From contig CALVLV010000004.1 in the NCBI GenBank assembly GCA_944341075.1, positions 3,829-67,828 of the forward strand: DNA of 64,000 nucleotides, read 5' to 3'. Positions 5,718 through 59,569 of this stretch are shown here, piece after piece. The notes beneath the pieces are model-generated. The model was not told where the DNA came from, did not search any database, and was given only the letters and a program-made list of their open reading frames with translations. This DNA comes from an uncultured Clostridia bacterium. Its GTDB lineage: Bacteria; Bacillota; Clostridia; Christensenellales; Borkfalkiaceae. A program made the translations under genes and the position numbers. Numbering within the stretch: the stretch's first letter is position 1; every line of letters begins with the position of its first letter.

Positions 5718-5721
5718 GTGT

Positions 5722-5763
5722 TCACGAAATTTTAGTTTTGGCCGAAAACTAAAATTTCCGTGA
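5722..5763. repeat. H hairpin copy 1 (42-nt palindrome)
   Basis: TCACGAAATTTTAGTTTTGGCCGAAAACTAAAATTTCCGTGA. Begins 4 nt after the rnj stop. Confidence 0.9.
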
Positions 5764-6086
5764 GCTTGAGAAACCAGGGTCTCGTGCGGCGTGCGGTAAA
5801 TTACCGCCGCACTCGGTCACCGCTCGCACTTTGCACTTTGTGCTCGCTCATTTCACAACACGCAAACAGCGCGTATGTGCTGTTTGCAGAAATGTGTTGT
5901 TCAACTCTTCGCGCGACTTTTAAGGGCCCACGAATATATAGTCGCGCGAATTCCCTTCCGGTGCGCGAGGGCTTTTGCCCGCTGCCCTGCCGAGGGTTCC
6001 CTTCGGGAAACGGCAGAACTCGCTTGCGCGACAAATTGGGTCGCGCTGGCGCAGGGGAACCCTGCTTGCGCCGTAATTTATTTAAT
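5764..6086 (-). repeat. Composite interspersed repeat, type I long form (H-proximal end on the left)
   Basis: Order on the + strand: M2 GAGAAACCAGGGTCTC (5768-5783), then core hairpins (5784-5905). The core hairpins are GTGCGGCG..CGCCGCAC and GCAAACAGC-GCGTATGT-GCTGTTTGC. Next come the L hairpin (5908-5952), GC-rich stems (5953-6072) and the AT-rich terminus GTAATTTATTTAAT (6073-6086). Positions 5768-6040 match the reverse complement of 40961-41233 with only 6 mismatches by my hand alignment. Confidence 0.9.
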
Positions 6087-6107
6087 ATAATTTCACACTT
6101 TCCGCAC

Positions 6108-6176
6108 GCGCCCTTGCCTCCCTTGCCAAAGGAAGGTGGCTTAACTGAACAAAGTGAAGTTAAGTCGGTGGGATTT
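6108..6176 (+). repeat. X module copy 1
   Basis: GCCTCCCTTGCCAAAGGAAGGTG, then the hairpin GCTTAAC..GTTAAGT, then CGGTGGGATTT. Same architecture as 24097-24173, and in reverse at 40827-40909, 54484-54552 and 59108-59188. Confidence 0.7.
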
Positions 6177-6220
6177 TTTGTGTTGCTATGTTTTTCAAAC
6201 TATTGTTCATATAATAATAT

Positions 6221-6868
6221 ATGGAAAATTTTTCTTACGCGCACCGCGATACTTCGGGCATGGCAAGGTGGAACACGCCGCGCATACCCGAAAGCCTTCA
6301 GGCCGTGCGCCAAAGCGCTTTCGGGCGCGAGATACCCATATCGGGCGATGAAACGCTGTCGTTTTTAATGGCTCAGGCGGCGGCGATAAAGCCTGATAGC
6401 ATACTCGAACTTGGCACGGCGGTGGGCGTAACTTCTGCCGCAATGCTGCTTGCATGCCCTGCGGCGCAGCTTACCACCGTAGAGCGCGACCATGCATTTT
6501 TTGAAGAGGCAAAAAATACCTACCATATGTGCGGCCTGCAGAGCAGGGTGCGCGCAATAGAGGGCGACGCGGGCGAAGTTATATATGCGCTCAGCGGCCC
6601 CTTCGATATGATATTTTTAGACTGCGCCAAGGTGCAGTACGTAAAGTACCTGCCCCGCTTAAAGCAGCTGTTAAGTGCTGGCGGCGTGCTGATCGCAGAC
6701 GACGTGCTGCTGTACGGCTGGGCGAGCGGCGAGGCCGAAGTGCCCAAAAAGCGCCGCATGCTGGCAAAGCACATAGAGGAGTACCTTGTTGCAGTCACGT
6801 CCGATCCCGAACTTTTCACCTCGGTGATAAAGGTGGGCGACGGCATTGCCCTTTCGGTAAAGCGCTGA
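6221..6868 (+). CDS. Class I SAM-dependent O-methyltransferase, YrrM/TrmR-like
   Basis: 215 aa with ILELGTAVGVTS (SAM motif I), DMIFLDCAK and GGVLIADDVLLYGW. The size and motifs fit family-3 O-methyltransferases. A U32 peptidase gene follows, as in B. subtilis yrrM-yrrNO. Confidence 0.8.
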   Translation: MENFSYAHRDTSGMARWNTPRIPESLQAVRQSAFGREIPISGDETLSFLMAQAAAIKPDSILELGTAVGVTSAAMLLACPAAQLTTVERDHAFFEEAKNTYHMCGLQSRVRAIEGDAGEVIYALSGPFDMIFLDCAKVQYVKYLPRLKQLLSAGGVLIADDVLLYGWASGEAEVPKKRRMLAKHIEEYLVAVTSDPELFTSVIKVGDGIALSVKR

Positions 6869-6940
6869 GCGCATATTATTTTGTATGTGGCGCATGCGCC
6901 TGCCTTTCGCGGCTTTGCCTATACAACTGTATTTTTGAAC

Positions 6941-8143
6941 ATGAAGAACGTTGAACTACTTGCCCCCGCGGGCAACTTTTCAAAACTTAAAACTGCCGTA
7001 TATTTCGGCGCGGACGCCGTATACTTAGGAGGAAAAGACTTTTCCCTTCGCTCGTTTGCCGACAACTTTTCGCGCGAGGAGCTTGTGCAGGCGGTAGAGT
7101 ACGCGCATGCGCTGGGCAAAAAGGTGTATGTCACCGTGAACATATACGCCCGCAACGCCGACCTTGCAAATATGGAGGACTATTTTGCCTTTCTGCAGTC
7201 GGCGGGGGCAGACGCGGCGCTCATCTCCGACCCCGGCGTGCTGTATGCCGCAAAAAAGGCGGCGCCCGAACTTGCCGTGCATATCTCCACCCAGGCCAAC
7301 GTAACCAACAAGTACGCCGTAAAATTCTGGCATGAACAGGGCGCAGAGCGCGCCGTGCTCGCCCGCGAACTTTCGCTTGCAGAGATTGCAGAAATACACG
7401 ACTTTGTGCCCGAAATGCAGCTTGAGGCCTTTGTTCACGGCGCAATGTGCATATCTTATTCGGGCAGGTGCCTGCTTTCCGACTATCTTGCGGGCAGGCC
7501 CTCCAACCGCGGCGAGTGTGCGCAGGCGTGCCGCTGGAACTATGCCGTGAGAAAGAGCGACGATAAGAGCGACAGCGGCTGGCTGCCGCTGGAAGAGGAC
7601 GAAAGGGGCGCATATATATTCAATTCAAAGGATCTGAATATGTCTGCCCACCTTGAAGATATGGCCGCCGCGGGCGTGTGCTCCTTCAAGATAGAGGGGC
7701 GCATGAAGAGCGAATATTACCTTGCCACCGTTATAAACGCCTACCGCAGGTGCATAGACGGCGGCTTTACGTCCGAGGTCGAGCGCGAGCTTTTGACCGC
7801 CGCCCACCGCGACTATACCACGGCCTACGCCCTCGGCGAAAATCATGCCACGGTAAACTATTCCAACAGCCAGACCAAGGGCGACTGCGACTACATAGGC
7901 AACGTTCTCGGCTATAAAGGCGGCTTTGCAAAGATAGAGATGCGCGGCCGCTTCTATGCGGGCGATACGCTGGAAGTGCTCTCCCCTACAGATAACTTTG
8001 GCAAGAGCTTTAAGGTGGAGGAGGTGTACGACTCGGAGGGAGTGCCCGTTTCCGACTGCAAGCGCGTGCAGGAGATATACTCAGTGCGCTGTCCCTATGC
8101 GCTTTCGGCAGGCGATATCGTCCGCCGAAGAAAACAGGCGTAA
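6941..8143 (+). CDS. Peptidase U32 family protein (TrhP/YrrO-like)
   Basis: MKNVELLAPAGNFSKLKTAVYFGADAVYLGG is the canonical U32 N-terminus, and the Cys-containing segment GECAQACRW is present. The ORF is open from 6881, but U32 proteins start at the M-x-x-ELLAPAG position, so ATG 6941 is preferred. Confidence 0.85.
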   Translation: MKNVELLAPAGNFSKLKTAVYFGADAVYLGGKDFSLRSFADNFSREELVQAVEYAHALGKKVYVTVNIYARNADLANMEDYFAFLQSAGADAALISDPGVLYAAKKAAPELAVHISTQANVTNKYAVKFWHEQGAERAVLARELSLAEIAEIHDFVPEMQLEAFVHGAMCISYSGRCLLSDYLAGRPSNRGECAQACRWNYAVRKSDDKSDSGWLPLEEDERGAYIFNSKDLNMSAHLEDMAAAGVCSFKIEGRMKSEYYLATVINAYRRCIDGGFTSEVERELLTAAHRDYTTAYALGENHATVNYSNSQTKGDCDYIGNVLGYKGGFAKIEMRGRFYAGDTLEVLSPTDNFGKSFKVEEVYDSEGVPVSDCKRVQEIYSVRCPYALSAGDIVRRRKQA

Positions 8144-8271
8144 GCTTTGGCAATTTTTTAATCGGGTGTGCGCGCACACATGTGCACGCATGCGCATTTA
8201 TGCAAAAGGGCGGCACATATGCCGCAAATAACGTTGGTTTATGCCGCGTTCAGACCAATAAAAGGTGTGTT

Positions 8272-10685: not shown

Positions 10686-10689
10686 CGGC

Positions 10690-11982: not shown

Positions 11983-12046
11983 ACATTGTCTTCAGCCGAG
12001 CTTAAAACCGCCGCGCGTATAAATATGCATTTGTGTAAAAAACTCA

Positions 12047-12238
12047 GTAAAATTAAATTAATAAAAGTCGCAAGGCGGGTTTCCCGCCGCAGCAGGCCCC
12101 CATTTGCGCATACCTGCGCCTCAGCAGGGTGAATGGCGAAGATTATATAATCGTAGGCCCTTAAGTATCTTCGCCAGAGGGGCTGGCCCTTAAAAGTCAC
12201 GAAATTTTTCGTTTTCGGCCAAAACGAAAAATTTGTGA
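12047..12238 (+). repeat. Composite interspersed repeat, type I short form
   Basis: AT-rich terminus AAAATTAAATTAAT (12049-), stem GGCGGG-TTT-CCCGCC (12075-12089) and L hairpin (12131-12175; stem GGCGAAGAT/ATCTTCGCC, loop TATATAATCGTAGGCCCTTAAGT). These are followed by the G palindrome (12177-12191) and H (12197-12238). It is the mirror image of 21628-21815. Confidence 0.9.
12197..12238. repeat. H hairpin copy 2
   Basis: TCACGAAATTTTTCGTTTTCGGCCAAAACGAAAAATTTGTGA. Confidence 0.9.
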
Positions 12239-12344
12239 ATAATATTAAATGGTCGCGCGCGAGTGCAAACAAAGGGCGGAATATGTATAACTTCTGCTTA
12301 TACCAAGCATAAAAAGTTGCTAAATTCAATGGTGTTCATATCGT

Positions 12345-12373
12345 TTGACAGGCACGGTTATTTATTTTATAAT
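12345..12373 (+). promoter_or_regulatory. Consensus sigma-A promoter of the glutamine synthetase gene
   Basis: TTGACA (12345-12350), a 17-nt spacer, then TATAAT (12368-12373). A ~105-nt leader follows with small hairpins (GCGGCA-ACAG-TGCCGC). Confidence 0.8.
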
Positions 12374-18579: not shown

Positions 18580-18850
18580 CGGGCCGCCGCGCATATATGC
18601 GTTGATCGGGGCATATATGCCGCCCTTTTGCAAGGGATGCAAGTGCTCTTAAGCGCTTTATACGGCAGTGCGTAATGTTTATCTGTCGTTCCGTGCGGAG
18701 AAATCTCATTGCGCCGTGGCGTGTTCAGCGGCCAATTTTTTTTGGTTAATTATGCATTGCGGCTTATAATTATAAGCTCAGGTTATATTCACTATTAATA
18801 ATAGCAAATGCCGCGCAGGCGCATAATTGCCTTATGGCAAATTTAACCGC

Positions 18851-21618: not shown

Positions 21619-21627
21619 AAAAAGTTT

Positions 21628-21669
21628 TCACAAATTTTTCGTGCGGGCCGCGCCCGAAAAATTTCGTGA
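21628..21669. repeat. H hairpin copy 3
   Basis: TCACAAATTTTTCGTGCGGGCCGCGCCCGAAAAATTTCGTGA. Begins 9 nt after the stop at 21618. Confidence 0.9.
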
Positions 21670-21815
21670 GTTTGGGAGAGCCAGCTCTCCCTTGCCACGA
21701 TTTTTTAAGGGCCCCCGATAATATAATCGGGGCAATTCCCTCTTTGGTGAGCCTGCTGACCGCAGCAAATTGGGTCTTGCGGCGGCGGGAAACCCGCCTT
21801 GCAAACGTAAATTGT
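21670..21815 (-). repeat. Composite repeat, type I short form (mirror of 12047-12196)
   Basis: G palindrome GGGAGAGCCAGCTCTCCC (21674-21691), reversed L hairpin (21692-21738), the GCGGCGGGAAACCCGCC stem, and the terminus ..GTAAATTG. Confidence 0.85.
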
Positions 21816-21827
21816 TCTATGTAATAA

Positions 21828-21865
21828 TTGTCATTTCGACCGAGCGACAGCGAGTGGAGAAATCT
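21828..21865 (+). repeat. S module copy (TTGTCATTTCGACCGAGCG..GGAGAAATCT)
   Basis: TTGTCATTTCGACCGAGCGACAGCGAGTGGAGAAATCT. The same module occurs at 26810, 35969, 40717, 49917, 54261 and in reverse elsewhere. Confidence 0.85.
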
Positions 21866-21877
21866 ATTCCGCAATAC

Positions 21878-23442: not shown

Positions 23443-23886
23443 ATGAAAAGGATCTATGTCAACGAAGAATGGTGCCTCGGCTGCCACCTGTGCGAATACG
23501 AGTGCATGTATGCCAACTCCGGGCTGGACGCAATGTTCAAGCTCAAGGGCAGGCTGGGCGAGTTTATCCCCCGCATAAAGGTGGAGGGAGAGGACGGCGC
23601 CGATGTACATTTTGCCGTCAACTGCCGCCAGTGCTCAGACCCCGTATGCGTTAAAAGCTGCATAGCGGGCGCCCTTTCAAAGGACGAAGGCGGCATTGTG
23701 CGCATAGATAAAAACAAGTGCGTGGGCTGCTATACCTGCGTGCTCGTCTGCCCCTACGGCGCAATAATGCCCGCGCCCGACGGCAAGGCCGCGCAAAAGT
23801 GCGCCCTGTGCACGGATAATATGATGGGCGAGCCCAACTGCGTAAAAAACTGCCCCAACAACGCCATCGTCTTTGAAGAGAGGTGA
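23443..23886 (+). CDS. 4Fe-4S dicluster (ferredoxin-like) protein
   Basis: CLGCHLCEYEC, CRQCSDPVCVKSC, CVGCYTCVLVCP and CALCTD..CVKNCP cysteine clusters. AAGGA lies 7 nt upstream of ATG 23443. The ORF is open from 23380. Confidence 0.85.
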   Translation: MKRIYVNEEWCLGCHLCEYECMYANSGLDAMFKLKGRLGEFIPRIKVEGEDGADVHFAVNCRQCSDPVCVKSCIAGALSKDEGGIVRIDKNKCVGCYTCVLVCPYGAIMPAPDGKAAQKCALCTDNMMGEPNCVKNCPNNAIVFEER

Positions 23887-23896
23887 AAATATATGT

Positions 23897-23938
23897 TCAC
23901 AATTTTTTCGGTCGGGCCGCGGCCGAAAAAATTCGTGA
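23897..23938. repeat. H hairpin copy 4
   Basis: TCACAATTTTTTCGGTCGGGCCGCGGCCGAAAAAATTCGTGA. Begins 10 nt after the stop at 23886. Confidence 0.9.
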
Positions 23939-24084
23939 GTTTAAGAAACCAAGTTTCTCTTCGCGCGACCTCTAAGTGCCCACGATTGTATAGTCGCGCG
24001 AATTCACTTCCGGTGAGCCCGCTTGCGCGGCAAATTGTGTCGCGCTGGCGCAGGGGAACCCTGCTTGCGCACATAATTTATTTG
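23939..24084 (-). repeat. Composite repeat, type I without the core insert
   Basis: M2 AAGAAACCAAGTTTCTC is followed directly by the reversed L hairpin (23960-24004). Next come GC stems GCGCGGCAAATTGTGTCGCGC and GCGCAGGGGAACCCTGCTTGCGC, then the terminus ACATAATTTATTTG. Compared with 5764-6086, the 122-nt core is absent exactly at the M2/L junction. Confidence 0.85.
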
Positions 24085-24096
24085 AAAAATCTATTC

Positions 24097-24173
24097 CTTA
24101 ATCGTGCCTCCCTTAATAAGGGAGGTGCCTTAAGTGAATAAAATGAAGTTAAGGCGGTGGGATTTAAATCCCC
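24097..24173 (+). repeat. X module copy 3
   Basis: TTAATCGTGCCTCCCTTAATAAGGGAGGTGCCTTAAGTGAATAAAATGAAGTTAAGGCGGTGGGATTT. Confidence 0.8.
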
Positions 24174-24175
24174 CT

Positions 24176-24360: not shown

Positions 24361-24383
24361 CAACTAAATAAAGGTAACAGACC

Positions 24384-25708: not shown

Positions 25709-26437
25709 ATGGAAATAAAGGTAGACGAAAACGTCCACTTTCAGGCGCTCAACCGCATTGTGCGCGAAAGTAAGGATGCCGATATAACCCTGAACGGGGT
25801 GGTGGGCCAGCGCTATATAGCCGACGGGCTTTCGGGCAAGCGCATAGTAATAAACGGCGTGCCCGGCAACGCGCTGGGAGCGTATATGAACGGCTGCGAG
25901 GTGATAGTGCACGGCAACGTGCAGGAGGCCACGGGCGACACAATGAACAGCGGCAAAATAGTCGTCTACGGCAACGCAGGCGACGCCACGGGGTACGCCA
26001 TGCGCGGCGGAAGAATATATATCCGCGACAACACAGGCTACCGCGCGGGCATCCACATGAAGGCGTATATGGACTTCAAGCCCGCAATCGTGATAGGCGG
26101 CAGGGCGGGGTCATTCCTCGGCGAATACCAGGCGGGCGGCACGATCGTCGTGCTCGGCCAGAACAAGGACGGGCTGCCCATAATAAACAACTTCTGCGGC
26201 ACGGGCATGCACGGCGGAACTATATATCTCCGCTGCAACAAGATCCCCCGCTCGCTGCCCGCACAGGTGGCTGCCGAAGGCAAATGGGGCGCAGATATGC
26301 CCGAATTATGCGAGCTGGTGCGCGACTGGTGCAACTTCTTCCCCGAATACAATGCCGACGAATTGCTTGGGCATAACTTCTTTGTGCTTACCCCCAACAG
26401 CGCCAATCCGTATAAGCAGATGTATACGAATAACTGA
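25709..26437 (+). CDS. GXGXG-motif protein (stand-alone glutamate synthase domain 3)
   Basis: Repeated beta-helix motifs GQRYIADGLSG, VHGNVQEATGDTMNSGKIVVYGNAGDATGYAMRGGRIYIRDNTGYRAG. GAAAGGAG lies upstream of the ATG. Confidence 0.9.
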   Translation: MEIKVDENVHFQALNRIVRESKDADITLNGVVGQRYIADGLSGKRIVINGVPGNALGAYMNGCEVIVHGNVQEATGDTMNSGKIVVYGNAGDATGYAMRGGRIYIRDNTGYRAGIHMKAYMDFKPAIVIGGRAGSFLGEYQAGGTIVVLGQNKDGLPIINNFCGTGMHGGTIYLRCNKIPRSLPAQVAAEGKWGADMPELCELVRDWCNFFPEYNADELLGHNFFVLTPNSANPYKQMYTNN

Positions 26438-26444
26438 AAGAGGT

Positions 26445-26486
26445 TCACGAAATTTTACGCCTGGCCGAGTCGTAAAATTTCCGTGA
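26445..26486. repeat. H hairpin copy 5
   Basis: TCACGAAATTTTACGCCTGGCCGAGTCGTAAAATTTCCGTGA. Begins 7 nt after the stop at 26437. Confidence 0.9.
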
Positions 26487-26810
26487 TTTGAGGGGCCTTC
26501 TCGCGCGGCGTGCGGTAAATTACCGCCGCGCTCGGTCACCGCAAATGCCTTGAATATGCATTTGCTCATCTCGCACCACGCAAACAGCGCGTATGTGCTG
26601 TTTGCAGAAATGTGTTGCGTCCCTCTTTGCGCAATCTTTAGTGCCCACGAAGTGTATAATTGCGCAAATTCACCCTGCTGCGCGAGGGCTTTGCCCGCTG
26701 CCCTGCCGAGGGTTCCCTTTGGGAAACGGCAGATGCGCAGGTATGCGCAAATTGTGTCCTGCTGCGGCGGCATAGCCGCCTTGCGACATTATTTATTTCA
26801 GAAAAATAAT
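26487..26810 (-). repeat. Composite repeat, type I long form (diverged paralogue of 5764-6086)
   Basis: Same module order as 5764-6086: M3 GCGCGGCG..CGCCGCGC (26503-26531), GCAAATGC..GCATTTGC, GCAAACAGC..GCTGTTTGC (26580-26605) and reversed L (26627-26670; stem TTGCGCAAT/ATTGCGCAA). These are followed by the CTGCCGAGGGTTCCC..GGGAAACGGCAG stem and the terminus ATTATTTATTT. Several stems differ from the 5.8-kb copy by paired (compensatory) changes. Confidence 0.85.
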
Positions 26811-26900
26811 TGTCATTTCGAGCGGAGCGAAGCGTAGTCGAGAAATCTCATCCGCATTTGGAGCGCCTTTAATGCGACAAGCATCAAGGGGCCTGGCTGC
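26810..26900 (+). repeat. S module plus M6 hairpin
   Basis: TTGTCATTTCGAGCGGAGCGAAGCGTAGTCGAGAAATCTC, followed by GGAGCGCCTTTAATGC-GACAA-GCATCAAGGG. The latter matches the reverse complement of 59239-59267. Confidence 0.75.
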
Positions 26901-40660: not shown

Positions 40661-40706
40661 AAGGCATATATGCGGGGCAATTTTAAAAGTGATGAGTGAT
40701 GAGCGG
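40661..40706 (+). repeat. Q module (GCATATATGC palindrome + CAATTTTAAAAGT + GATGAGTGATGAG)
   Basis: AAGGCATATATGCGGGGCAATTTTAAAAGTGATGAGTGATGAGCGGG. A longer version lies at 49783-49890. Confidence 0.75.
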
Positions 40707-40716
40707 GCTGCGTCCG

Positions 40717-40820
40717 TTGTCATTTCGACTAAGCGAATGTAATGAGCGCATGGAGAAATCTCTTTGCTTTGCCGCATTTCTTGAGATTTCTCCACTCGCT
40801 GATGCTCGGTCGAAATGACA
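40717..40820. mobile_element. Inverted pair of S modules (104-bp hairpin / MITE-like unit)
   Basis: TTGTCATTTCGACTAAGCGAATGTAATGAGCGCATGGAGAAATCTC, a 20-nt centre, then GAGATTTCTCCACTCGCTGATGCTCGGTCGAAATGACA. The termini are perfect inverted repeats (GTCATTTCGAC/GTCGAAATGAC). Confidence 0.75.
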
Positions 40821-40826
40821 GTGAAA

Positions 40827-40909
40827 GAGATTTTTGTAAATCCCACCGACACGCCCTCGCTACGCTCGTGCGTATCACCTCCCTTAATAAGGGAGGCACG
40901 ATTAAGGAA
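40827..40909 (-). repeat. X module copy 4
   Basis: GAGATTTTTGTAAATCCCACCGACACGCCCTCGCTACGCTCGTGCGTATCACCTCCCTTAATAAGGGAGGCACGATTAAGGAA. Confidence 0.8.
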
Positions 40910-40914
40910 AAATT

Positions 40915-41279
40915 TTTTAAATAATCAATGTTTCAAGCAAGGTTTCCTTGCGCAGAAAGACACAATTTGTCGCGTGAGCGAGTTCTGCCGTTTCCCGAAG
41001 GGAACCCTCGGCAGGGCAGCGGGCAAAAGCCCTCGCGCACCGGAAGTGAATTCGCGCGACTATATATTCGTGGGCTCTTAAAAGTCGCGCGAAGAGTTGA
41101 ACAACACATTTCTGCAAACAGCACATACGCGCTGTTTGCGTGTTGTGAAATGAGCGAGCACAAAGTGCAAAGTGCGAGCGGTGACCGAGTGCGGCGGTAA
41201 TTTACCGCACGCCGCACGAGACCTTGGTTTCTCAAAATCACGAATTTTTTCGGGCGCGGCCCGAACGAAAAAATTGTGA
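40915..41279 (+). repeat. Composite repeat, type I long form, including H copy 6 (41238-41279)
   Basis: Terminus TTTTAAATAATCAATGTT, GC stems, L hairpin (41048-41093), core (41097-41217), M2 GAGACCTTGGTTTCTC and H TCACGAATTTTTTCGGGCGCGGCCCGAACGAAAAAATTGTGA. Positions 40961-41233 are the inverted near-identical twin of 5768-6040. Confidence 0.9.
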
Positions 41280-41282
41280 AAA

Positions 41283-41404
41283 ATTTTAAAATAATTAATG
41301 CCGAAAAAATGCAAAGCGGAATTTACTTCCGCTGTTAAGCATTTTTACGACTTACCTAAACCTCACGGCGGAAGATTTTTGCATCGCAAAAAGATTTCGC
41401 GTGA
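41283..41404 (+). repeat. T module plus H copy 13 (41363-41404)
   Basis: TTTTAAAATAATTAATGCCGAAAAAATGCAAAGCGGAATTTACTTCCGCTGTTAAGCATTTTTACGACTTACC, then TCACGGCGGAAGATTTTTGCATCGCAAAAAGATTTCGCGTGA. The same T sequence occurs at 54383-54463. H ends 2 nt from the dnaA stop codon. Confidence 0.85.
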
Positions 41405-41406
41405 AC

Positions 41407-42759
41407 TCACTTCTTCAGTATTATATTCTTTATATCGTCCACGTCCTTGGCTATGCGGTCGTTTATGCGGCACATCTCTTCAACCTTGTCGCGCGAATAC
41501 AGCACGGTGGTGTGGTCTCTGCCGCCCAGCTCCTTGCCTATGGAAACAAGGGGGAGGGATAGCAGTTCGCACATAAGGTAGCAGCATATCTGGCGGGGTA
41601 TGACAACTTCCTTCTTCTTGCTCTTGCCGGTAATGTCTGCCTTGTTTATGTGGTAAAAGGACGTAACTGCCGAAATCACCGTTTCGGGCGTTATCTCTTC
41701 CTTGCCGCCTTCGGACACGGCCTCGTTCAGCGCGCTGCGCGCAAGGGCTATGGTTATGGGCTCTTCGTGCAGGCGCGAGGCGAATATCACCTTTGTCAGC
41801 CTGCCCTCAAGCGTGCGCACGTCGTCGCCGCTGTCCTTTGCCAAAAAGGCCAGCACCTCTTCGGGCACGGCGCACTTCTTTTCAAACGCCTTGCGCTTTA
41901 AAATGGCTATCTTCGTGTCGTAGTCGGGCGGAAGTATGTCAAACAGCAGCCCGCCCGAAAAGCGCGTGCGCAGCCTCTCTTCAAGCGCCGCAAGCTCCCT
42001 GGGGGAGTGGTCGGAGGAGATGACTATCTGCTTGCCCTTGGAGACAAGCTCGTTGAAGGTGTGGAAAAATTCCTCCTGCACGGCCTTTTTGTTCTCTATA
42101 AACTGTATGTCGTCTATAATAAGCACGTCGGCGGTGCGGTAGTGCTGCCTCAGCTTGTTGCTCTTGTCGCGAGTGTCCGCCCCGCGCGTTGCAAACATTG
42201 TGTCTATTATTTCGTTTACAAACTTCTCGCAGGTGATGTATATTACCTTTAAATAGGGCTTTTCGCGCACTATTTTATTTGCAATGGCCTGCATAAGGTG
42301 GGTCTTGCCCAGGCCTGTGCCGCCGTATATAAACAGCGGGTTGTATGTGCCCGCGGGGTCTGCCGCAACCGACTGCGCCGCGGCGTACACGTATTCGTTG
42401 TTGGGGCCTACCACAAAACTTTCAAAGGTGTATTTGGGGTCAAGATTTTCCGGCGCGGAAAAAGCGGCCTCCTCGCCGGGGGCGTTGTATGCGTAGCCGT
42501 CCGCCCCCTCTATCTTTAAGCGGAAGTCGGTTATGCCCGTGCCCGTTTCGGCTATGGCCTCGCGCATTTTGTCGGCTATTTTGCCCGTTATCATCTTGGC
42601 AAAGCTCTCCGTGGGCGCTTCAAGCACAATATACCTTCCGTCCACGTCAACGGGCACCAGCCTCTCTATAAAGGTGGTGTAGGTTATCGGCGAAACAAGT
42701 TCGCGCAGCTTTTCCTTTATCGGGTTGTACAAAAAGTCGAAGTTTCCGTTAGATGCCAT
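41407..42759 (-). CDS. dnaA: Chromosomal replication initiator protein DnaA
   Basis: LFIYGGTGLGKTHLMQAI (Walker A), IDDIQF, the sensor motifs, and the C-terminal DNA-binding helix GGRDHTTVLYS. The ORF is open to 42828, but that extension overlaps a divergent promoter. MASNGNFDF at ATG 42759 gives a normal 450-aa DnaA. Confidence 0.93.
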   Translation of the reverse strand: MASNGNFDFLYNPIKEKLRELVSPITYTTFIERLVPVDVDGRYIVLEAPTESFAKMITGKIADKMREAIAETGTGITDFRLKIEGADGYAYNAPGEEAAFSAPENLDPKYTFESFVVGPNNEYVYAAAQSVAADPAGTYNPLFIYGGTGLGKTHLMQAIANKIVREKPYLKVIYITCEKFVNEIIDTMFATRGADTRDKSNKLRQHYRTADVLIIDDIQFIENKKAVQEEFFHTFNELVSKGKQIVISSDHSPRELAALEERLRTRFSGGLLFDILPPDYDTKIAILKRKAFEKKCAVPEEVLAFLAKDSGDDVRTLEGRLTKVIFASRLHEEPITIALARSALNEAVSEGGKEEITPETVISAVTSFYHINKADITGKSKKKEVVIPRQICCYLMCELLSLPLVSIGKELGGRDHTTVLYSRDKVEEMCRINDRIAKDVDDIKNIILKK

Positions 42760-42779
42760 AAGTTTTGCAAAAAGTTCCT

Positions 42780-42807
42780 TTGTAATTAAAAAATATTGTG
42801 GTATAAT
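42780..42807 (+). promoter_or_regulatory. Sigma-A promoter directed toward recF
   Basis: TTGTAA, a 16-nt spacer, then TATAAT with TGg (extended -10), in the 176-bp dnaA-recF spacer. Confidence 0.6.
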
Positions 42808-42935
42808 GCGTATAAAATAAAAAGTCAACGCAGATAGTATGCGGTAAGCCTCTGCGCAACTGTGGTAAAATCAACTGCCTTTGTTTTTCAATTATACTAC
42901 AACGCGCGGCAAAATGAAAGAGTTTTTACAAAAAA

Positions 42936-44021
42936 ATGCAGATAAAAAATTTGACGCTTAAAAATTTCAGAAACTACGCCGATGAAAATTTTGAGTTTAC
43001 CGAAGGGCTCAACGTGCTCTACGGCAAAAACGCGCAGGGCAAAACCAACTGTGCGGAGGCGGTGTTTTACCTCTGCACGGGCGTTTCTCCGCGCGCCCGC
43101 CGCGAAAAACAGCTGATAATGCACGGCAAGCAGCGCGCCGACATATCTGCCACCGCCTGCGGCAGGTACGGCGACGTGAACATTGCCGCCACCATCTTTG
43201 AAAACGGGCGCGAGATCCGCATAAACGGCAACCGCATAGCGCGCAACGCCGACCTTTTGGGCAACATATTCAGCATCTTTTTTTCGCCTTCGGAACTGCG
43301 CCTTATCCAGGACGGGCCCGACGAGCGCAGGCGGTTTTTGAACATATCCATATCGCAGCTGTCAAAGCCATACTACACGGCGCTGTTGCGCTATAACAAG
43401 ATACTGGAACAGCGCAACAACCTGTTAAAGGACAGGGATACCGGCCTCATCTACGACACCCTGCCCGTGTGGGACGAACAGCTTGCAAAGTATGCCGCCA
43501 TAGTCGTGCGCCACCGCGCCGACTATATCGCCCGCCTGGCGCCCGTTGCGGAGGAGGAGCACTACCGCCTTACCGACGGCGCCGAAAAACTTGTCGTCCG
43601 CCCAGAAAAGAGGTACGATGGCGACGACGAGGAGCTTAAGGAGCAGCTGTTTGAAGAGCTGCGGCGCAATTACGAGCGCGACGTGCGGCTGGGCTACACG
43701 AGCATCGGCCCCCACCGCGACGACCTCGACTTTCTCATCAACGGGCAAGACGCCAAAAATTTTGCCTCGCAGGGGCAGACGCGCACGGCCGCCCTTTCGG
43801 TAAAGCTTGCCGAAATGGAGATATTCAAACAGCTTTCGGGCGAATATCCCGTGCTCATCCTCGACGACGTGATGAGCGAGCTCGACCTTCCCCGCCGCAA
43901 AAAGCTGGTGGAGCGCGCCCAGGGCATGCAGACCATACTCACCTGCACGCACGCCGAGCGCGTGCTGTACGGCAGGCAGACCAACAAAATACGCATAGAG
44001 GGGGGTGCCATAAAGCGATGA
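42936..44021 (+). CDS. recF: DNA replication and repair protein RecF
   Basis: LTLKNFRNY, GKNAQGKTNCAEA (Walker A), the SMC-like signature SQGQTRTAALS and ILDDVMSELD (Walker B). Confidence 0.9.
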   Translation: MQIKNLTLKNFRNYADENFEFTEGLNVLYGKNAQGKTNCAEAVFYLCTGVSPRARREKQLIMHGKQRADISATACGRYGDVNIAATIFENGREIRINGNRIARNADLLGNIFSIFFSPSELRLIQDGPDERRRFLNISISQLSKPYYTALLRYNKILEQRNNLLKDRDTGLIYDTLPVWDEQLAKYAAIVVRHRADYIARLAPVAEEEHYRLTDGAEKLVVRPEKRYDGDDEELKEQLFEELRRNYERDVRLGYTSIGPHRDDLDFLINGQDAKNFASQGQTRTAALSVKLAEMEIFKQLSGEYPVLILDDVMSELDLPRRKKLVERAQGMQTILTCTHAERVLYGRQTNKIRIEGGAIKR

Positions 44022-47721: not shown

Positions 47722-47846
47722 AAACGCTTTTGATAAGCGGCGCAATACTGTGTCGCGTTTACGGGTATGTTCGGTCACTTACCTCAAAGTAAGCTTCCTC
47801 ACATCTTCCGCACGCTCCTTGTCTTGCTTGCTTCTGAAAAGCGTAT
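47722..47846. repeat. Long imperfect hairpin related to the core module
   Basis: AAACGCTTTTGATAAGC (47722-47738) pairs with GCTTCTGAAAAGCGTAT (47830-47846). The interior TCGGTCACTTACCTCAAAGTAAGCTTCCTCAC resembles the TCGGTCACCGC-hairpin-CTCATCTCAC segment of the type I core. Confidence 0.45.
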
Positions 47847-47924
47847 ATTTGTGTGTGTGGTGGTTTTGTGTACTGCTCGCATCTCCAAGGTCATTATGTT
47901 CGTAGGCGTTGCGGTATATAAGCA

Positions 47925-48076
47925 AAAATTAATAAAATTAAATTAATCTAATTTGCGCAAGCAGGGTGAATTTGCCCCAATTATACTATATGAGAGCCCT
48001 TAAGATTGGGGCAAGGGGGAGCTGGCTCCCCAAAATCACGAAGATTTTACGGCGGCACCAGCCGCAAAATCTGTGA
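47925..48076 (+). repeat. Composite repeat, type I short form, including H copy 7 (48036-48076)
   Basis: AT-rich terminus AAAATTAATAAAATTAAATTAATCTAATT, GCGCAAGCAGGGTGAAT, and the L hairpin (47968-48014; stem GCCCCAATT/GATTGGGGC). These are followed by G GGGGAGCTGGCTCCCC (48016-48031) and H TCACGAAGATTTTACGGCGGCACCAGCCGCAAAATCTGTGA. H ends 9 nt before the plsX ATG. Confidence 0.9.
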
Positions 48077-48085
48077 GGTATTTTG

Positions 48086-49754: not shown

Positions 49755-49782
49755 TAATTTTCGCGGCGCGTACCGCGTTATT

Positions 49783-49890
49783 TGCCGCATATATGCGTGG
49801 CAATTTTAAAAGTTACGGGTTTGCCGTCCGGCAAACGTGATAAGTGATGAGTGATAAGTTTGCCCTGTCGGGCAAACGTGGTGGGGGGGA
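49783..49890 (+). repeat. Q module, long version
   Basis: TGCCGCATATATGCGTGGCAATTTTAAAAGT plus two hairpins, GTTTGCC-GTCC-GGCAAAC and GTTTGCCC-TGTC-GGGCAAAC, interleaved with GATAAGTGATGAGTGATAAG. Confidence 0.75.
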
Positions 49891-49916: not shown

Positions 49917-50085
49917 TTGTCATTTCAGCTTGGCGCATTTATATGTCATTGACGCTATTGCGCCTACGGCGAACAATAGCTATTCCGTCGCTTCGCTCCT
50001 TACGACCGAGCGGCAGCGAGTGGAGAAATCTCAAAATAAGAGATCTCTCCATGCGCTCATTACATTCGCTTAGTCGAGATGATAG
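49917..50085. mobile_element. Inverted S-long / S pair (MITE-like)
   Basis: The left part contains TGTCATTGACGCTATTGCGCCTACGGCGAACAATAGCTATTCCGTCGCTTCGCTCCTTACGACCGAGCGGCAGCGAGTGGAGAAATCTC, which matches the reverse complement of 59276-59370. The right part, AGATCTCTCCATGCGCTCATTACATTCGCTTAGTCGAGATGA, matches the reverse complement of the S copy at 40722-40762. Confidence 0.7.
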
Positions 50086-50122
50086 GGGTCATTTTTTTAA
50101 TAATCTACGTACGCGCGAATAG

Positions 50123-50205
50123 TTTCCCGCAGTAAAGTTCAGCGAGCCGGCGCGAGCGCCCGGAACTTTACAAGAAATAACTTTTTTGCGACAACGAATT
50201 TAAAA
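50123..50205 (+). repeat. U module copy 1
   Basis: TTTCCCGCAGTAAAGTTC..GGAACTTTACAAGAAATAACTTTTTTGCGACAACGAATTTAAAA, a long hairpin GTAAAGTTC/GAACTTTAC. The second copy is at 56819-56901. Confidence 0.75.
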
Positions 50206-50509
50206 TTACTTATGTGCGCAAGGCGAATTTAGTTCGCCGTTAAGCGGTCGCCTCGTGCCTCGTTGGTCGGCTCCGCAACGCCTCACGCTTTGCTCGGCAT
50301 GTTGCGGTTTCTCCGCGGCACACGAACAGCGGGTATCCGCTGTTCTACAGAACGTGCCGCTCGTCCCTATTTGCTGCGGTCAGCAGGCTCACCAAATGGG
50401 GAATTGCCCCAATTATAATATAAGAGAGCCCCTGAAATTGGGGCAAGGGGGAGCTGGCTCCCCTAAATCACGGAAAAAGATTTGCGTCACCAGCAAAGAT
50501 TTTTCGTGA
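50199..50509 (+). repeat. Composite repeat, type II, including H copy 8 (50468-50509)
   Basis: Terminus TTTAAAATTACTTATGT, V module (50250-50400, ~90% identical to 54777-54927), L hairpin (50401-50446), G (50447-50463) and H TCACGGAAAAAGATTTGCGTCACCAGCAAAGATTTTTCGTGA. H ends 13 nt before the smc ATG. Confidence 0.9.
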
Positions 50510-50522
50510 ACAAGGTCATTTT

Positions 50523-54227: not shown

Positions 54228-54260
54228 AAAAATCCCTCAGTCAGGCTGTTGCCTGTCAGT

Positions 54261-54361
54261 CGTCATTTCGACTGTAGCGAACGAAGTGAGCGGAATGGAG
54301 AAATCTCGTTGTTTTTTATTGAGATTTCTCCGCGCGGGCTTTGCCCTTGGTCGAAATGACA
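54261..54361. mobile_element. Inverted pair of S modules (101-bp hairpin / MITE-like unit)
   Basis: CGTCATTTCGACTGTAGCGAACGAAGTGAGCGGAATGGAGAAATCTC-GTTGTTTTTTATT-GAGATTTCTCCGCGCGGGCTTTGCCCTTGGTCGAAATGACA. Confidence 0.75.
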
Positions 54362-54382
54362 GGTAATATAACCGGTACGAAA

Positions 54383-54486
54383 AAATTTTAAAACAAATAA
54401 TGCTGAAAATTGCAAAGCGGAATTTACTTCCGTTGTTAAGCAATTTTACGGCTTACCGTAAAATCACGGCGGAAGATTTTTGCAAA
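54383..54486 (+). repeat. T module plus truncated H (copy 14, left arm only)
   Basis: AAAATTTTAAAACAAATAATGCTGAAAATTGCAAAGCGGAATTTACTTCCGTTGTTAAGCAATTTTACGGCTTACCGTAAAA, then TCACGGCGGAAGATTTTTGCA. This runs directly into the AAATCCCACC end of an X module, the same junction as at 40827 and 59108. Confidence 0.8.
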
Positions 54487-54552
54487 TCCCACCGCCGCGG
54501 CCTGCGGTCGCGTCACCTCCCTTTGACAAGGGAGGCACGAATAAGGAAAGAT
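54484..54552 (-). repeat. X module copy 5
   Basis: CAAATCCCACCGCCGCGGCCTGCGGTCGCGTCACCTCCCTTTGACAAGGGAGGCACGAATAAGGAAAG. Confidence 0.8.
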
Positions 54553-55034
54553 TTAAAATAATTTATGTTTGCAAGGCGGGGTCTTGCCGCCATCAAGGTA
54601 AAACATGGCGGTTTTGCGGTTTCCCAAAGGGAACCCTCCGCAAAGTAGCGTCGCTTGCGCTCCTCACGCGGTCACCGCAAACGCAAGTCATATGCGTTTG
54701 CTCATCTCACTTCACCACGCACAACGGGTGTCCGTTGTGCTATGAAATGGCTCGTTCGTCCCGCCGCCGCAAGTTCGCCTCGTATCCTCGTTGGTCGGCT
54801 CCGCAACGCCTCACGCTTTGCTCGGCATGTTGCGGTCTCTCCGCGGCACACGAACAGCGGGTGTCCGCTGTTCTATTGGGCGTGCCGCTCGTCTCAATTT
54901 GCTGCGGCCAGCAGGCTCACCAAGGGTGAATTTGCGCAATTATATAACCGAGGGCATTTAAGATTGCGCAAAGAGGGGCTGGCCCCTTAACATCACGAAA
55001 TTTTTCGCGCTCGGCCAGCACGAAAAAATTGTGA
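54551..55034 (+). repeat. Composite repeat, type II long form, including H copy 9 (54993-55034)
   Basis: Terminus ATTTAAAATAATTTATGTT, GC stems, and a core variant (54655-54760; GCAAACGCA..TGCGTTTGC and GCACAACGG-GTGT-CCGTTGTGC). These are followed by V (54777-54927), L (54928-54971; stem GCGCAAT/ATTGCGC), G (54975-54986) and H TCACGAAATTTTTCGCGCTCGGCCAGCACGAAAAAATTGTGA. H ends 14 nt before the ftsY ATG. Confidence 0.9.
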
Positions 55035-55048
55035 AAAAGGTATATTGT

Positions 55049-56624: not shown

Positions 56625-56766
56625 CGGACATATCAAACCCTTTAACGGCAATAGTTTTTTCTGTTTTAACTAAATAAAACATAAGTGTTATCGCCAAAGT
56701 TTGCATGTCCTTCGGTAAATGATTGGTTTTTTACAACTTTGCTGCCCCGTTGCAGAAACAGTTTCA

Positions 56767-57340
56767 CAAACTCACGAAATTTTTCGGGCGCGGCCCGCAC
56801 GAAAAATTTGTGAACCCTTTTTCCCGCCGTAAAGTTCAGCGCGGCAGCCCGCGCATAAAGAACTTTACAAGGAATAACTTTTCGCAACAGCAAGTTTAAA
56901 ACAAATTGTGCCGAAAAAGTGCAAGGACGAGCAACACATTTCTGCAAACAGCACATACGCGCTGTTTGCGTGTTGCGAGATGAGCAAAAGCATATTAAAA
57001 GCTTTTGCGGTGACCGAATGCGGCGGCAATATACCGCATGCCGCATGAGAAGATTTAGTTCAACCGTTAAGCACTTTTACGACTTACCGTAAAATCACGG
57101 AAAAAGATTTTTGCGTAGCAAAAAGATTTTTCGTGAACGTTTAAAATAATTAATGTGCGCAAGCAGGGTTTCCCTGCGATAGCGCGACTACATTTGCGGC
57201 GAAAGCCGGCTCACCGGAAGTGAATTCGCGCGACTGCATAATCGTGGGCCCTTAAAGGTCGCGCGAAGAGAAACTTGGTTTCTCAAACTCACGAAATTTT
57301 TCGGGCGCGGCCCGCACGAAAAATTTGTGAACCCTTTTTT
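56767..57340. repeat. 574-bp composite of repeat modules flanked by 56-nt perfect direct repeats
   Basis: Order: H copy 10 (56772-56813), U (56819-56901), reversed core (56926-57047, with M3 stem ATGCGGC../..GCCGCAT at 57018-57046) and a T tail (57053-57094). Next come H copy 12 (57095-57136, TCACGGAAAAAGATTTTTGCGTAGCAAAAAGATTTTTCGTGA) and a type I element (terminus 57139-, L 57222-57267, M2 GAGAAACTTGGTTTCTC). H copy 11 (57289-57330) closes the unit. CAAACTCACGAAATTTTTCGGGCGCGGCCCGCACGAAAAATTTGTGAACCCTTTTT occurs identically at 56767-56822 and 57285-57340. Confidence 0.85.
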
Positions 57341-58249: not shown

Positions 58250-58636
58250 ATGGATAAAAGGGGCTTTAAGGGCGCTTCGATATTCCAGACGGCGTGCTTT
58301 TTTATCGTTGCGCTCGTGTGGTCGATAGCCGAAAACCGGGCAGACGTAGTCGCGTTCATCGTCATCGGCTGGCTGCTGTTCGCGCTCGGCGCAATACAGA
58401 CGGTGCTGTGTTTTGCAATGCCCGAGGCAAAGAATACGGCGGCCGTTTGCGGGCTGGCCGTGGCGGCGGACATGGCGCTCGGCGGCGCGCTCATCGCGCT
58501 GTTCGTAACGCAGATAGGCTTTTCTCAGGGCGGCGTTTCGCTTTTCAACGATGTGTTCACTATCGTCCTGTTTGTCGTGATTTTAGTGGCCGTTGCGGCC
58601 ACCTATGTGTGCGGCGTGACCGACCGCAAGGGGTGA
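58250..58636 (+). CDS. Small 4-TM membrane protein, unknown function
   Basis: 128 aa with four hydrophobic helices. AGGGAGGGG lies upstream of the ATG. Confidence 0.7.
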   Translation: MDKRGFKGASIFQTACFFIVALVWSIAENRADVVAFIVIGWLLFALGAIQTVLCFAMPEAKNTAAVCGLAVAADMALGGALIALFVTQIGFSQGGVSLFNDVFTIVLFVVILVAVAATYVCGVTDRKG

Positions 58637-58687
58637 TTGCCCCGCACATATGCCTTAAATAATGTACATTTTTTATAATATAGAAAT

Positions 58688-58720
58688 GCGCGCAGTGCGG
58701 CATTTTGCCGCGCTGCGCGC
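58688..58720. terminator. Bidirectional terminator between convergent genes
   Basis: GCGCGCAGTGCGGC-ATTTT-GCCGCGCTGCGCGC, with A/T-rich flanks. Confidence 0.7.
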
Positions 58721-58775
58721 ACTTTAAAAGATTATTGTTTTTTAAAGAGCGGCACATATGCCGCAACGATTCGTT

Positions 58776-59057
58776 TTATGCGGCAAGATACAGGTAGGCA
58801 AGCACCAGTGCAAAGCCCTGCCATGCCAGGCCGGCTACGTTGGCGGCGATAAACGCGGGCTTGCGGAATTTGTGATGGAATATCATCATGCCGAGTATTC
58901 CGCCCACAGCCCCGCCGAGCAAGGAGAGGAGTATCAGCGTTATTTCGGGCACGCGCCATGTGCCCTTTATTGCGGCAAACTTGTCTTTGCCGTACAGTAT
59001 AAAGTTTATAAGCGATATGGCGCCCGCTATGGCGCAGATAATTATAAATGCAGTCAT
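58776..59057 (-). CDS. DUF1294-family small membrane protein
   Basis: MTAFIIICAIAG..YGKDKFAAIKGTWRVPEITLILLSLLGGAVGGILGMMIFHHKFRK matches the DUF1294 pattern as I recall it. The upstream part of the track ORF (to 59198) runs through repeat module X. Confidence 0.7.
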   Translation of the reverse strand: MTAFIIICAIAGAISLINFILYGKDKFAAIKGTWRVPEITLILLSLLGGAVGGILGMMIFHHKFRKPAFIAANVAGLAWQGFALVLAYLYLAA

Positions 59058-59107
59058 CGGATTCTGCCCCCCTGTCCGGCTGAAATAACAAAGGCGCTCA
59101 AAATGCG

Positions 59108-59188
59108 GAAAGATTTTCGCAAATCCCACCGGGTAGCCCTCGCTAAAGTTCGTGCTACCCACCTCCCTTTGGCAAGGGAGGCACGATT
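59108..59188 (-). repeat. X module copy 6
   Basis: GAAAGATTTTCGCAAATCCCACCGGGTAGCCCTCGCTAAAGTTCGTGCTACCCACCTCCCTTTGGCAAGGGAGGCACGATTGCGG. Confidence 0.8.
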
Positions 59189-59238
59189 GCGGTGACAATT
59201 CCTCAGTCTTGCTGTCGCTTACGCTTTCGCAAGATAGC

Positions 59239-59370
59239 TCCCTTAATGCTCGCGCATTAAAGGAGCCTTTAGTGTGGAATAGATTTCTCCGTTCGCTTCG
59301 CTCGGTCGTAAGGAGCGAAGCGACGGAATAGCGATTGTTCGCACGAAGTGCGCAATCGCGTCAATGACAA
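59239..59370 (-). repeat. M6 hairpin and S-long module (reverse orientation)
   Basis: TCCCTTAATGC-TCGC-GCATTAAAGGAGCC, then GGAATAGATTTCTCCGTTCGCTTCGCTCGGTCGTAAGGAGCGAAGCGACGGAATAGCGATTGTTCGCACGAAGTGCGCAATCGCGTCAATGACA. The internal stem is CGCTTCGCTC/GAGCGAAGCG. Confidence 0.8.
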
Positions 59371-59565
59371 ATTTTTTTAAATAATGAACGTTTCAAGCAG
59401 GGTTCCCCTGCGCAGAAAGACCCAATTTGTCGCGTAAGCGAGCTCACCAAAGGGGGAATGACTGCAATTGTATAATAAGTGAGCACTTAAAAATTGCAGT
59501 CAGGGGGAGCTGGCTCCCCCAAAGTCACGAAGATTTTACGGCGGCACCAGCCGTAAAATCTGTGA
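59371..59565 (+). repeat. Composite repeat, type I short form, including H copy 15 (59525-59565)
   Basis: Terminus ATTTTTTTAAATAATGAACGTT, CAAGCAGGGTTCCCCTGCG and the L hairpin (59456-59501; stem GACTGCAATT/AATTGCAGTC). These are followed by G GGGGGAGCTGGCTCCCCC (59503-59520) and H TCACGAAGATTTTACGGCGGCACCAGCCGTAAAATCTGTGA. H ends 4 nt from the radA stop codon. Confidence 0.9.
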
Positions 59566-59569
59566 GACC

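Follow-up and report, generated by a model that had tools for sequence, protein, structure and literature searches.

A probable new family of interspersed hairpin-forming repeats in the intergenic DNA of an uncultured Clostridia bacterium

What fills nearly every long intergenic region of a 64,000-nt stretch of DNA from an uncultured Clostridia bacterium (Christensenellales, Borkfalkiaceae; assembly GCA_944341075.1, contig CALVLV010000004.1, positions 3,829 to 67,828; hereafter the window)? An initial annotation described twelve such regions as mosaics of about ten recurring hairpin modules (H, G, L, core, M2, S, X, T, U and V, with P/Q palindromes), put their total at ~5.7 kb or ~9% of the window, and compared them with E. 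coli BIMEs and pneumococcal BOX elements. The estimate of extent was accurate, as the twelve regions sum to 5,728 nt, which is ~9% of the segment, and account for about half of the ~11.5 kb that is intergenic. Using self-BLASTN and a repeat search of the window, we found dispersed repeats only in intergenic DNA, at these regions; the sole other self-similarity detected by self-BLASTN was the coding tandem repeats of the gene at 7-3288. Two diagnostic patterns had 6 and 9 matches in the window, versus 0.00 expected from shuffles. We conclude from the evidence presented below that the repeats probably represent one or more new families of lineage-specific, interspersed, non-coding, hairpin-forming DNA repeats, of the same kind as REP/BIME, BOX or bcr.

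The first question is what the basic unit is. Alignments showed that modules H, G, L and M and an A/T-rich end are consecutive parts of one co-linear ~200-nt unit, the dominant repeat, in which six hairpins are linked by conserved single-stranded joints (ATTCAC, GGTGAGC and CAAATTG). H, G, L, M and the tail are thus not free modules. In the reference short unit (copy D, 23888..24101, + strand; 215.7 bits with the covariance model (CM) R1 described below), the first hairpin, P1 (23896-23938), has a stem of ~17 bp with invariant feet, TTCAC and CGTGA, one bulged C and an otherwise variable sequence. After (G/T)TTT follow the hairpin P2 (23943-23959) and P3 (23960-24002), the latter with a 10-bp stem and a conserved ~23-nt loop ending in TATA(A/G). 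The next joint is the conserved unpaired TTCACTTCCGGTGAGC (24003-24018; this stretch is also written TTCACYNNNGGTGAGC), in which the TTCAC...GTGA motif of P1 recurs. Then come hairpin P5 (24019-24030), the joint CAAATTGTGT (24031-24040; also written CAAATTGNGT), a two-level hairpin P6 with outer and inner parts (24041-24070), and an A/T-rich tail that is ACRTTATTTATTTTAAA-like (24071-24091). P1 (~43 nt) is always followed by ~150 nt of further conserved hairpins. A candidate helix P4, pairing ATTCAC with GGTGA, had zero covariation and 27 unpaired cells in the MAFFT alignment and was removed from the model. The TATAAT-like sequences of the tail and the P3 loop were likewise considered as promoters and rejected, because the hexamer spacings are unsuitable and the true, perfect promoters are located elsewhere.

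A long form of the unit (~385 nt; 5713-6101, 26436-26816 and 40901-41288 in the window) carries two additional hairpin blocks. The initial annotation noted that a 122-nt core distinguishes the element at 5764-6086 from that at 23939-24084 and suggested nesting. The core is indeed present, at the junction before the L hairpin, and additional sequence in all CM matches is located at helix loops or junctions, in agreement with nested insertion. A second extra block of ~55-60 nt in the long copies had been overlooked, as had a further abundant repeat, W (47733-47841).

To what extent do the repeats occur outside the window? Independent gut metagenome assemblies contain contigs near-identical to the window, and the window genes have 76-87% nucleotide identity to metagenome-assembled genomes (MAGs) named Candidatus Coproplasma or "uncultured Clostridia bacterium", which places the source as an uncultured, Coproplasma-like member of the Clostridia. 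Our comparison set comprised 1.79 Mb of related contigs from loci picked for carrying the repeat, and counts from it do not correspond to per-genome copy number. For most of the twelve regions, 72-100% of positions matched at least 5 other places in this set, with a lower share in two of the regions (44% and 64%), and the ~200-nt unit gave 396 nhmmer matches. A scan of a genome collection returned at least 97 matching stretches, and among the matches listed almost all were in at least 15 Coproplasma/uncultured-Clostridia MAGs; a metagenome scan added 120 loci, 110 of them with units. CM R1, which was built from 96 units, identified 179 matches in 755 kb (window plus MAG loci), and in the window itself 11 clear units and one solo P1, a density of about one per 5 kb (11-12 in 64 kb). 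The modules are therefore not a local duplication. More diverged copies were observed on two long contigs of a different metagenome project (JGI Ga0137307_100061 and Ga0137307_100008), and the family thus probably reaches beyond the named Coproplasma MAGs.

The repeats did not correspond to a catalogued family. A search of the whole window against Rfam release 15 gave zero matches at the gathering threshold and, in E-value mode, none on any repeat; focused Rfam scans of 23880-24380 and 40650-41410 returned just a chance-level match to Rubella_3 (20 bits versus 35). A phage or plasmid origin was rejected, with no pattern matches in viral contigs and no BLASTN matches in phage and plasmid collections. 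Literature searches on Coproplasma or Christensenellales combined with repeats returned nothing relevant. No tRNA or tmRNA genes were found in the window, and an origin of the repeats from such genes was discarded. These results agree with the initial view of an uncatalogued BIME/BOX-like family.

Are the stems of diverged copies maintained by paired substitutions, as had been proposed? The L and M3 stem pairs quoted in support are present in the alignment as written. We used a structure-blind MAFFT alignment of 96 units with helices drawn by hand, and as a control slid the 3′ partners by 1-3 columns. Cells were paired in 92.1% of cases, compared with 36-46% when slid, and double changes were found in 833 cells, compared with 73-204; 0 of 500 shuffles reached the observed values. 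In a CM alignment of 150 units, which is biased towards structure, the paired share was 95.7% (38-51% slid) and 46 of 48 pairs had double changes. The arms of P1 (17 nt) took 76 distinct sequences among 127 units, with at most one non-Watson-Crick pair in 106, and those of P3 took 36 among 134, with perfect pairing in 115. The excess of compensatory change is therefore well above the controls, although, as described below, at least part of it reflects exchange of whole hairpins rather than stepwise substitution.

Functional RNAs normally display a clear excess of G·U over A·C pairs on the transcribed strand. Here the two were equally frequent (91 G·U versus 95 A·C, or 61 versus 65 after removal of one misaligned subtype, since the P2 helices of the GGGGAGC subtype are off by one position in the CM alignment, which raises both counts by 30), and an attempt to assign a strand from this comparison found no asymmetry. 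We conclude that the paired substitutions are not evidence for RNA function. Stems that are strictly Watson-Crick fit upkeep in DNA, perhaps by hairpin-templated correction, a mutational mechanism known from quasi-palindromes.

Comparison of near-identical strains revealed how readily the units come and go. The unit at 57137-57338 (copy E) is missing from metagenome contig L106 as a 197-nt indel between flanks that are 98-99% identical, and four additional filled/empty pairs were found. The intergenic regions of L011 and L090 that are orthologous to that of copy D lack the unit. Between L157 and L095 (flanks 98.4% identical), the difference is confined to the P3 hairpin and its joint, which are completely different, and between L208 and L096 an entire unit has been exchanged for another subfamily with both flanks conserved. 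Because hairpins are swapped between copies, at least part of the apparent compensation is whole-hairpin exchange. Other modules behave similarly: a 99-nt segment of the window (18639-18738) is replaced in L002 (12485-12682) by a 197-nt segment with S and X modules between flanks that are 99% identical, which indicates recent turnover of modules other than those of the R1 unit. Three filled/empty pairs have the new unit placed between the open reading frame (ORF) and a TTCAC hairpin already in position, immediately 5′ of that hairpin and facing the same way. One insertion (L109 versus L156) is clean, with TTTTTT on both sides, a possible 6-nt target duplication, whereas the other pairs have none or have altered neighbouring sequence. 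That near-identical strains differ by units and by single hairpins points to mobile, recombining DNA rather than a dedicated RNA gene.

The position of the units relative to genes is strongly non-random. Relative to the upstream gene, 78 units were co-oriented and 43 reversed (p=0.002). For 69 co-oriented units both neighbours are known, and in 53 of these P1 begins no more than 11 nt past the stop codon upstream, whereas 10.1 would be expected if units were spread evenly over the gene-free interval. Typical spacings are 1-10 nt, and TAG may even be followed directly by TTCAC. Among reverse units, a Shine-Dalgarno site and start codon lie 0-15 nt from the P1 foot in ~28 of 43, as upstream of plsX, smc and ftsY in the window. 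Of 113 tail ends, only 5 directly adjoin an ORF. Intergenic settings (n=109) were co-directional in 83 cases, convergent in 20 and divergent in 6, the divergent class being under-represented, and perfect sigma-A promoters are located outside the units. The adjoining genes are functionally unrelated housekeeping genes. Units also lie within the rnc-smc-ftsY cluster, which is an operon in Bacillus subtilis, and within the split glutamate-synthase cluster, where the intergenic regions of relatives are only 66-90 nt; the units inside these clusters therefore probably form part of mRNAs rather than acting as strong terminators.

The copies in the window illustrate both arrangements. On the + strand, copy D has its P1 10 nt past the stop codon of a ferredoxin-like gene (ends 23886), and copy F (short unit, 21619..21835; CM R1 197.8 bits) comes directly after the stop codon at 21618 and precedes an S half-element (21829-21873). 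The long copy A (5713..6101, 148.5 bits) begins 3 nt after the rnj stop codon, with its core at 5783-5904 between P2 and P3 and its second block at 5962-6021 after P3; the repeat is 92% identical to 40959-41288, within the long copy B (40901..41288, - strand, 145.6 bits), which lies downstream of dnaA (41407-42828, - strand) with a T/U module (41290-41406) between it and the dnaA stop codon. The third long copy, C (26436..26816, + strand, 141.2 bits), is 77% identical to A and has its P1 ~6 nt past the stop codon at 26437. A 202-aa ORF at 5760-6368 is probably spurious because most of its length crosses a repeat unit. The remaining short units are on the - strand: copy G (12038..12247, 173.8 bits), reversed between dinB and glnA, with the perfect sigma-A promoter of glnA (12345-12373) outside it; copy E (57126..57339, 213.8 bits), after which a second TTCAC hairpin (57138-57092) heads a T/U module; and copy I (59361..59574, 187.6 bits), whose P1 is 4 nt from the stop codon of a radA-like gene (59570-60976, - strand).

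Copies J (50185..50518, 145.4 bits) and H (54851..55043, 135.8 bits), both reversed on the - strand with a variant 3′ half, have P1 feet that adjoin the Shine-Dalgarno sites of smc (CGTGAACAAGGTCATTTTATG, ATG at 50523) and of an ftsY-like gene (TGTGAAAAAGGTATATTGTATG, ATG at 55050), respectively, and in the truncated or degenerate copy K (47917..48085, - strand, 104.1 bits) the Shine-Dalgarno site of plsX is fused with the P1 foot (TGTGAGGTATTTTGATG). The site upstream of smc also has units in L035 and L069, i.e. in three species, with differing stem sequences. The solo P1 hairpin (56772-56813) with a degenerate remainder (56650..56822, - strand) scored 56.4 bits. Starts assigned by the longest ORF are misleading beside the repeats at 48083 and 55031, where a GTG in the reverse complement of P1 lengthens the ORFs; Shine-Dalgarno spacing instead favours ATG 48086 for plsX and ATG 55050 for the ftsY-like gene as the likely true starts, and the smc start at ATG 50523 is correct.

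How would such repeats arise and persist? As interspersed DNA repeats, the units would spread as DNA, through a trans-acting enzyme encoded elsewhere that reads the hairpin foot, through recombination between copies, or both. Complementarity would be kept at the DNA level by hairpin-templated correction together with conversion of whole hairpins. Copies would persist at gene ends since a hairpin is tolerated there, and the hairpin is perhaps useful as a stabiliser or insulator at mRNA 3′ ends or 5′-proximal positions, like REPs in operons.

The closest precedents are REP/BIME of E. coli and the REPINs of Pseudomonas. As in those families, there are hundreds of short palindromic units found only in intergenic DNA, mostly after genes or between cistrons and scarce between divergent genes, non-coding, in both orientations, in mosaics with other motifs, with conserved nucleotides at the hairpin foot and likely transcribed within mRNAs. 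However, a REP is an imperfect 35-40-nt hairpin, frequently found as inverted pairs, and a REPIN ~100 nt, as compared with ~200 nt and six helices here; there is no sequence similarity, the P1 feet are TTCAC/GTGA with no GTAG foot, stems are hypervariable rather than conserved, no RAYT gene was found in the window (Pfam) or in the 1.79 Mb of repeat-centred loci, and P1 meets stop codons or Shine-Dalgarno sites almost to the nucleotide. Pneumococcal BOX (boxA-boxB-boxC), RUP and SPRITE share a Firmicute host, modular intergenic organisation with a variable number of internal modules, predicted stable folds and a share of a few percent of the genome, and for BOX, too, no mobilising mechanism is known; the present repeats have no sequence similarity to them, have a larger module vocabulary, covary strongly and independently in every helix, and belong to a different, uncultured clade. 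Similarly, bcr1-bcr18 of the Bacillus cereus group are Firmicute intergenic repeats of 100-400 nt with conserved predicted structure and compensatory changes, some of them MITE-like (resembling miniature inverted-repeat transposable elements) and transcribed, but bcr1 has a TTTAT target duplication and conserved sequence, whereas the units described here have no consistent duplication and exchange whole hairpins. The repeats are thus not members of the REP/BIME, BOX or bcr families themselves, and two traits set them apart: stems that are hypervariable yet perfectly paired, and one end that precisely abuts stop codons or ribosome-binding sites.

Several observations weigh against regarding the units as mobile DNA repeats. 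No mobilising enzyme was found in the window or in the 1.79 Mb sampled; the initial statement that the window encodes no transposase held in a Pfam search of its proteins, which returned no transposase, integrase or phage domain (a single "IstB" match is the AAA+ domain of DnaA, not a transposition protein). The unit ends, a TTCAC hairpin and an A/T-rich tail, are not inverted repeats of each other, and the consensus has no end complementarity. A possible target duplication (6 nt) was seen in one case only. Several filled/empty pairs differ in the neighbouring hairpin as well, so that simple insertion is indistinguishable from recombination or deletion. Finally, three features would also suit a functional RNA or a protein-binding element, namely that unpaired motifs are conserved, that extra blocks fall in loops and junctions, and that P1 is positioned to the nucleotide where ORFs begin or end.

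One alternative, which we regard as possible but doubtful, is that the units are non-autonomous single-stranded DNA elements, either REPIN-like or resembling the PATEs of IS200/IS605, that are recognised in trans at P1 and its TTCAC foot by a Y1 HUH transposase (RAYT/TnpA). The invariant foot combined with a free stem sequence, the second TTCAC...GTGA after P3, the absence of terminal inverted repeats, the landing of new units immediately 5′ of an existing TTCAC hairpin that faces the same way, and the strict Watson-Crick pairing expected of DNA hairpins are all consistent with it. PATEs have subterminal hairpins at each end, insert 3′ of a fixed tetra- or pentanucleotide and are biased in strand with respect to replication; the present unit has a hairpin at its 5′ end. 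RAYTs are usually flanked by their REPs, yet no Y1/HUH transposase was found in the 1.79 Mb of repeat-centred loci, either by tBLASTN with IS200/IS608 TnpA queries (possibly inexact) or by a scan for the HUH/Tyr motif; neither multi-copy ORFs nor TnpA or TnpB were seen in this sample. Along one 265-kb contig the unit orientations are mixed (+6/-10), evidence against any strict bias towards the lagging strand. The unit is also five times the length of a REP, and most filled/empty junctions are not clean.

A second possibility, to which we give only tentative credence, is that the units are more than selfish DNA and form a hairpin-guided system in which P1 is delivered to, or retained at, ORF boundaries exactly, either as a new mobilisation mechanism or as mRNA end caps. 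In the former case, a recombinase or nuclease could read the TTCAC foot and insert units on the ORF-proximal side of resident hairpins, by a logic analogous to that of integron attC sites but without cassettes. Like P1, attC has conserved feet (the "core") and a variable covarying stem, is found as a hairpin right after stop codons, and works as folded single-stranded DNA. Unlike attC, the P1 feet (TTCAC...CGTGA) do not fit RYYYAAC / GTTRRRY, five further hairpins are present in the unit, the neighbours are core housekeeping genes in conserved synteny rather than cassettes, one third of the units face a start codon, and the window has no integrase domain. In the latter case, genome-wide mobile "mRNA end caps" could set 3′ ends and 5′-proximal stability for hundreds of genes, including cistrons within operons.

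It is rather unlikely, in our judgement, that the units are instead functional structured cis-acting RNAs in 3′ untranslated regions or between cistrons, with P1 defining or protecting mRNA ends and the family spreading by selection for this function. Such a role would account for six covarying helices joined by conserved single-stranded segments, for insertions of variable length in loops and at junctions, a feature of many functional RNAs, for the orientation bias towards the strand of the upstream gene, for the placement of P1 1-10 nt past stop codons or against Shine-Dalgarno sites, for occupancy of the pre-smc site in three species with differing stems, and for the units in the rnc-smc-ftsY cluster, hence probably transcribed. 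It accords poorly with the one third of copies that are oppositely oriented, the equal numbers of G·U and A·C, the presence or absence of whole units between strains that are 98-99% identical, the functionally unrelated neighbours of units spaced at about one per 5 kb, and the lack of any Rfam match. Moreover, P1 has no canonical terminator U-tract and the units went unflagged by a terminator consensus scan; it marked no + strand unit in the 5.5-25.4 kb stretch, and in copy G it marked the inner P6 hairpin alone.

Classical MITEs, that is, internally deleted copies of insertion sequences with a DDE transposase that move by cut-and-paste with target-site duplication, are a still poorer candidate and in our estimate a very improbable one. 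The ~200-nt size, high copy number, intergenic location and presence/absence polymorphism of the units resemble MITEs, as does the one clean insertion between TTTTTT runs (L109 versus L156), but the ends are not the inverted repeats that MITEs require, the other filled/empty pairs show no consistent duplication, and neither a related transposase nor a longer gene-carrying master copy (5′ and 3′ unit halves 0-5 kb apart) was found in the 1.79 Mb sampled, where the gaps between unit halves consist of 46-490 nt of known blocks or of ordinary genes such as trkA in L077. Ordinary intrinsic terminators alone, or a local duplication or assembly artefact, can be dismissed as next to impossible, because although many hairpins lie just past stop codons and MAG and metagenome contigs often end at repeats (e.g. 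L070), the units recur across independent assemblies and in at least 15 species-level MAGs, comprise six helices and conserved joints rather than one hairpin with a U-tract (of which there is none after P1, so that they go beyond ordinary terminators, as first suggested), and are found upstream of start codons too.

About half of the intergenic DNA here, in a gut clade represented only by metagenomes, consists of repeats that have no match in Rfam, phage and plasmid collections, or the literature. For genome-resolved metagenomics, they explain contig breaks, spurious ORF calls (5760-6368) and wrongly extended starts (55031 and 48083), and in covariation screens they will appear as false discoveries of structured RNAs. 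They also offer a clean natural example of hairpins that stay perfectly complementary while their sequence passes through dozens of states, and that lack the G·U signature of RNA. If the placement of P1 reflects targeting or function, site choice and the shaping of mRNA ends by such repeats become testable.

The rest of the twelve regions belongs to at least eight further families (core-122, ins2, S, X, T/U, V, Z and W), all of which are multi-copy in related genomes. The S element (40712..40821, no strand assigned) is a long palindrome of ~110 nt, GTCATTTCGAC...GTCGAAATGAC, with 54 matches in the 1.79 Mb; copies or halves lie at 54256-54362, 49997-50087, 21829-21873 and 35969-36011. The 122-nt core, besides its presence in copies A, B and C, occurs free-standing at 56929..57045 (- strand) and has 49 matches in the related contigs. 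The T/U module (41290..41406, + strand; further copies at 54392-54485 and 57052-57138) has 50 matches in related contigs. The W repeat (47733..47841, + strand; 109 nt, depth ~51) begins 20 nt after the stop codon of a lysS-like gene and has one copy in the window, with 92 matches in 69 related loci sampled. Module X (6100..6176, + strand) contains a hairpin in which CCTCCCTT pairs with AAGGGAGG(TG), followed by a conserved GGTGGGATT; further copies are at 24103-24164, 40828-40903, 54474-54540 and 59105-59188. In the X hairpin, a Shine-Dalgarno-like AAGGGAGGTG pairs with the anti-Shine-Dalgarno-like CCTCCCTT, and the conserved GGTGGGATT lies ~40 nt downstream. The P/Q motifs, which are short palindromes of the GCATATATGC type and in some cases precede GGCAATTTTAAAAG, recur just past stop codons (18586-18632, 40654-40690, 49778-49813 and 58636-58663). 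They are low-copy in the sample (5 matches for 18586-18632) and may be the ordinary terminators.

The window otherwise has the character of an ordinary bacterial chromosome, with a G+C content of 55% and housekeeping genes that, by Pfam, include rnj, aroA, dinB, a type III glnA, amt-PII, split glutamate synthase genes, purA, dapF, pyrG, spoIIE, mnmG, dnaA, recF, lysS-like, plsX, rnc, smc, ftsY, radA-like and ispDF. The presence of dnaA raised the possibility that the repeats are part of a replication origin. The window has just one perfect DnaA box (40610-40618) and no clear minimum in GC skew; an oriC is therefore not evident, and this explanation was dropped. The dnaA gene lies between mnmG (38712-40565, - strand) and the divergent recF (42936-44021, + strand), dnaN is not between them, and repeat modules fill the 744-nt region downstream of dnaA. 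The gene at 7-3288, directly upstream of that for RNase J, encodes a strongly acidic 1093-aa protein that is rich in Glu, Ala and Pro, has no Pfam match, and contains internal tandem repeats.

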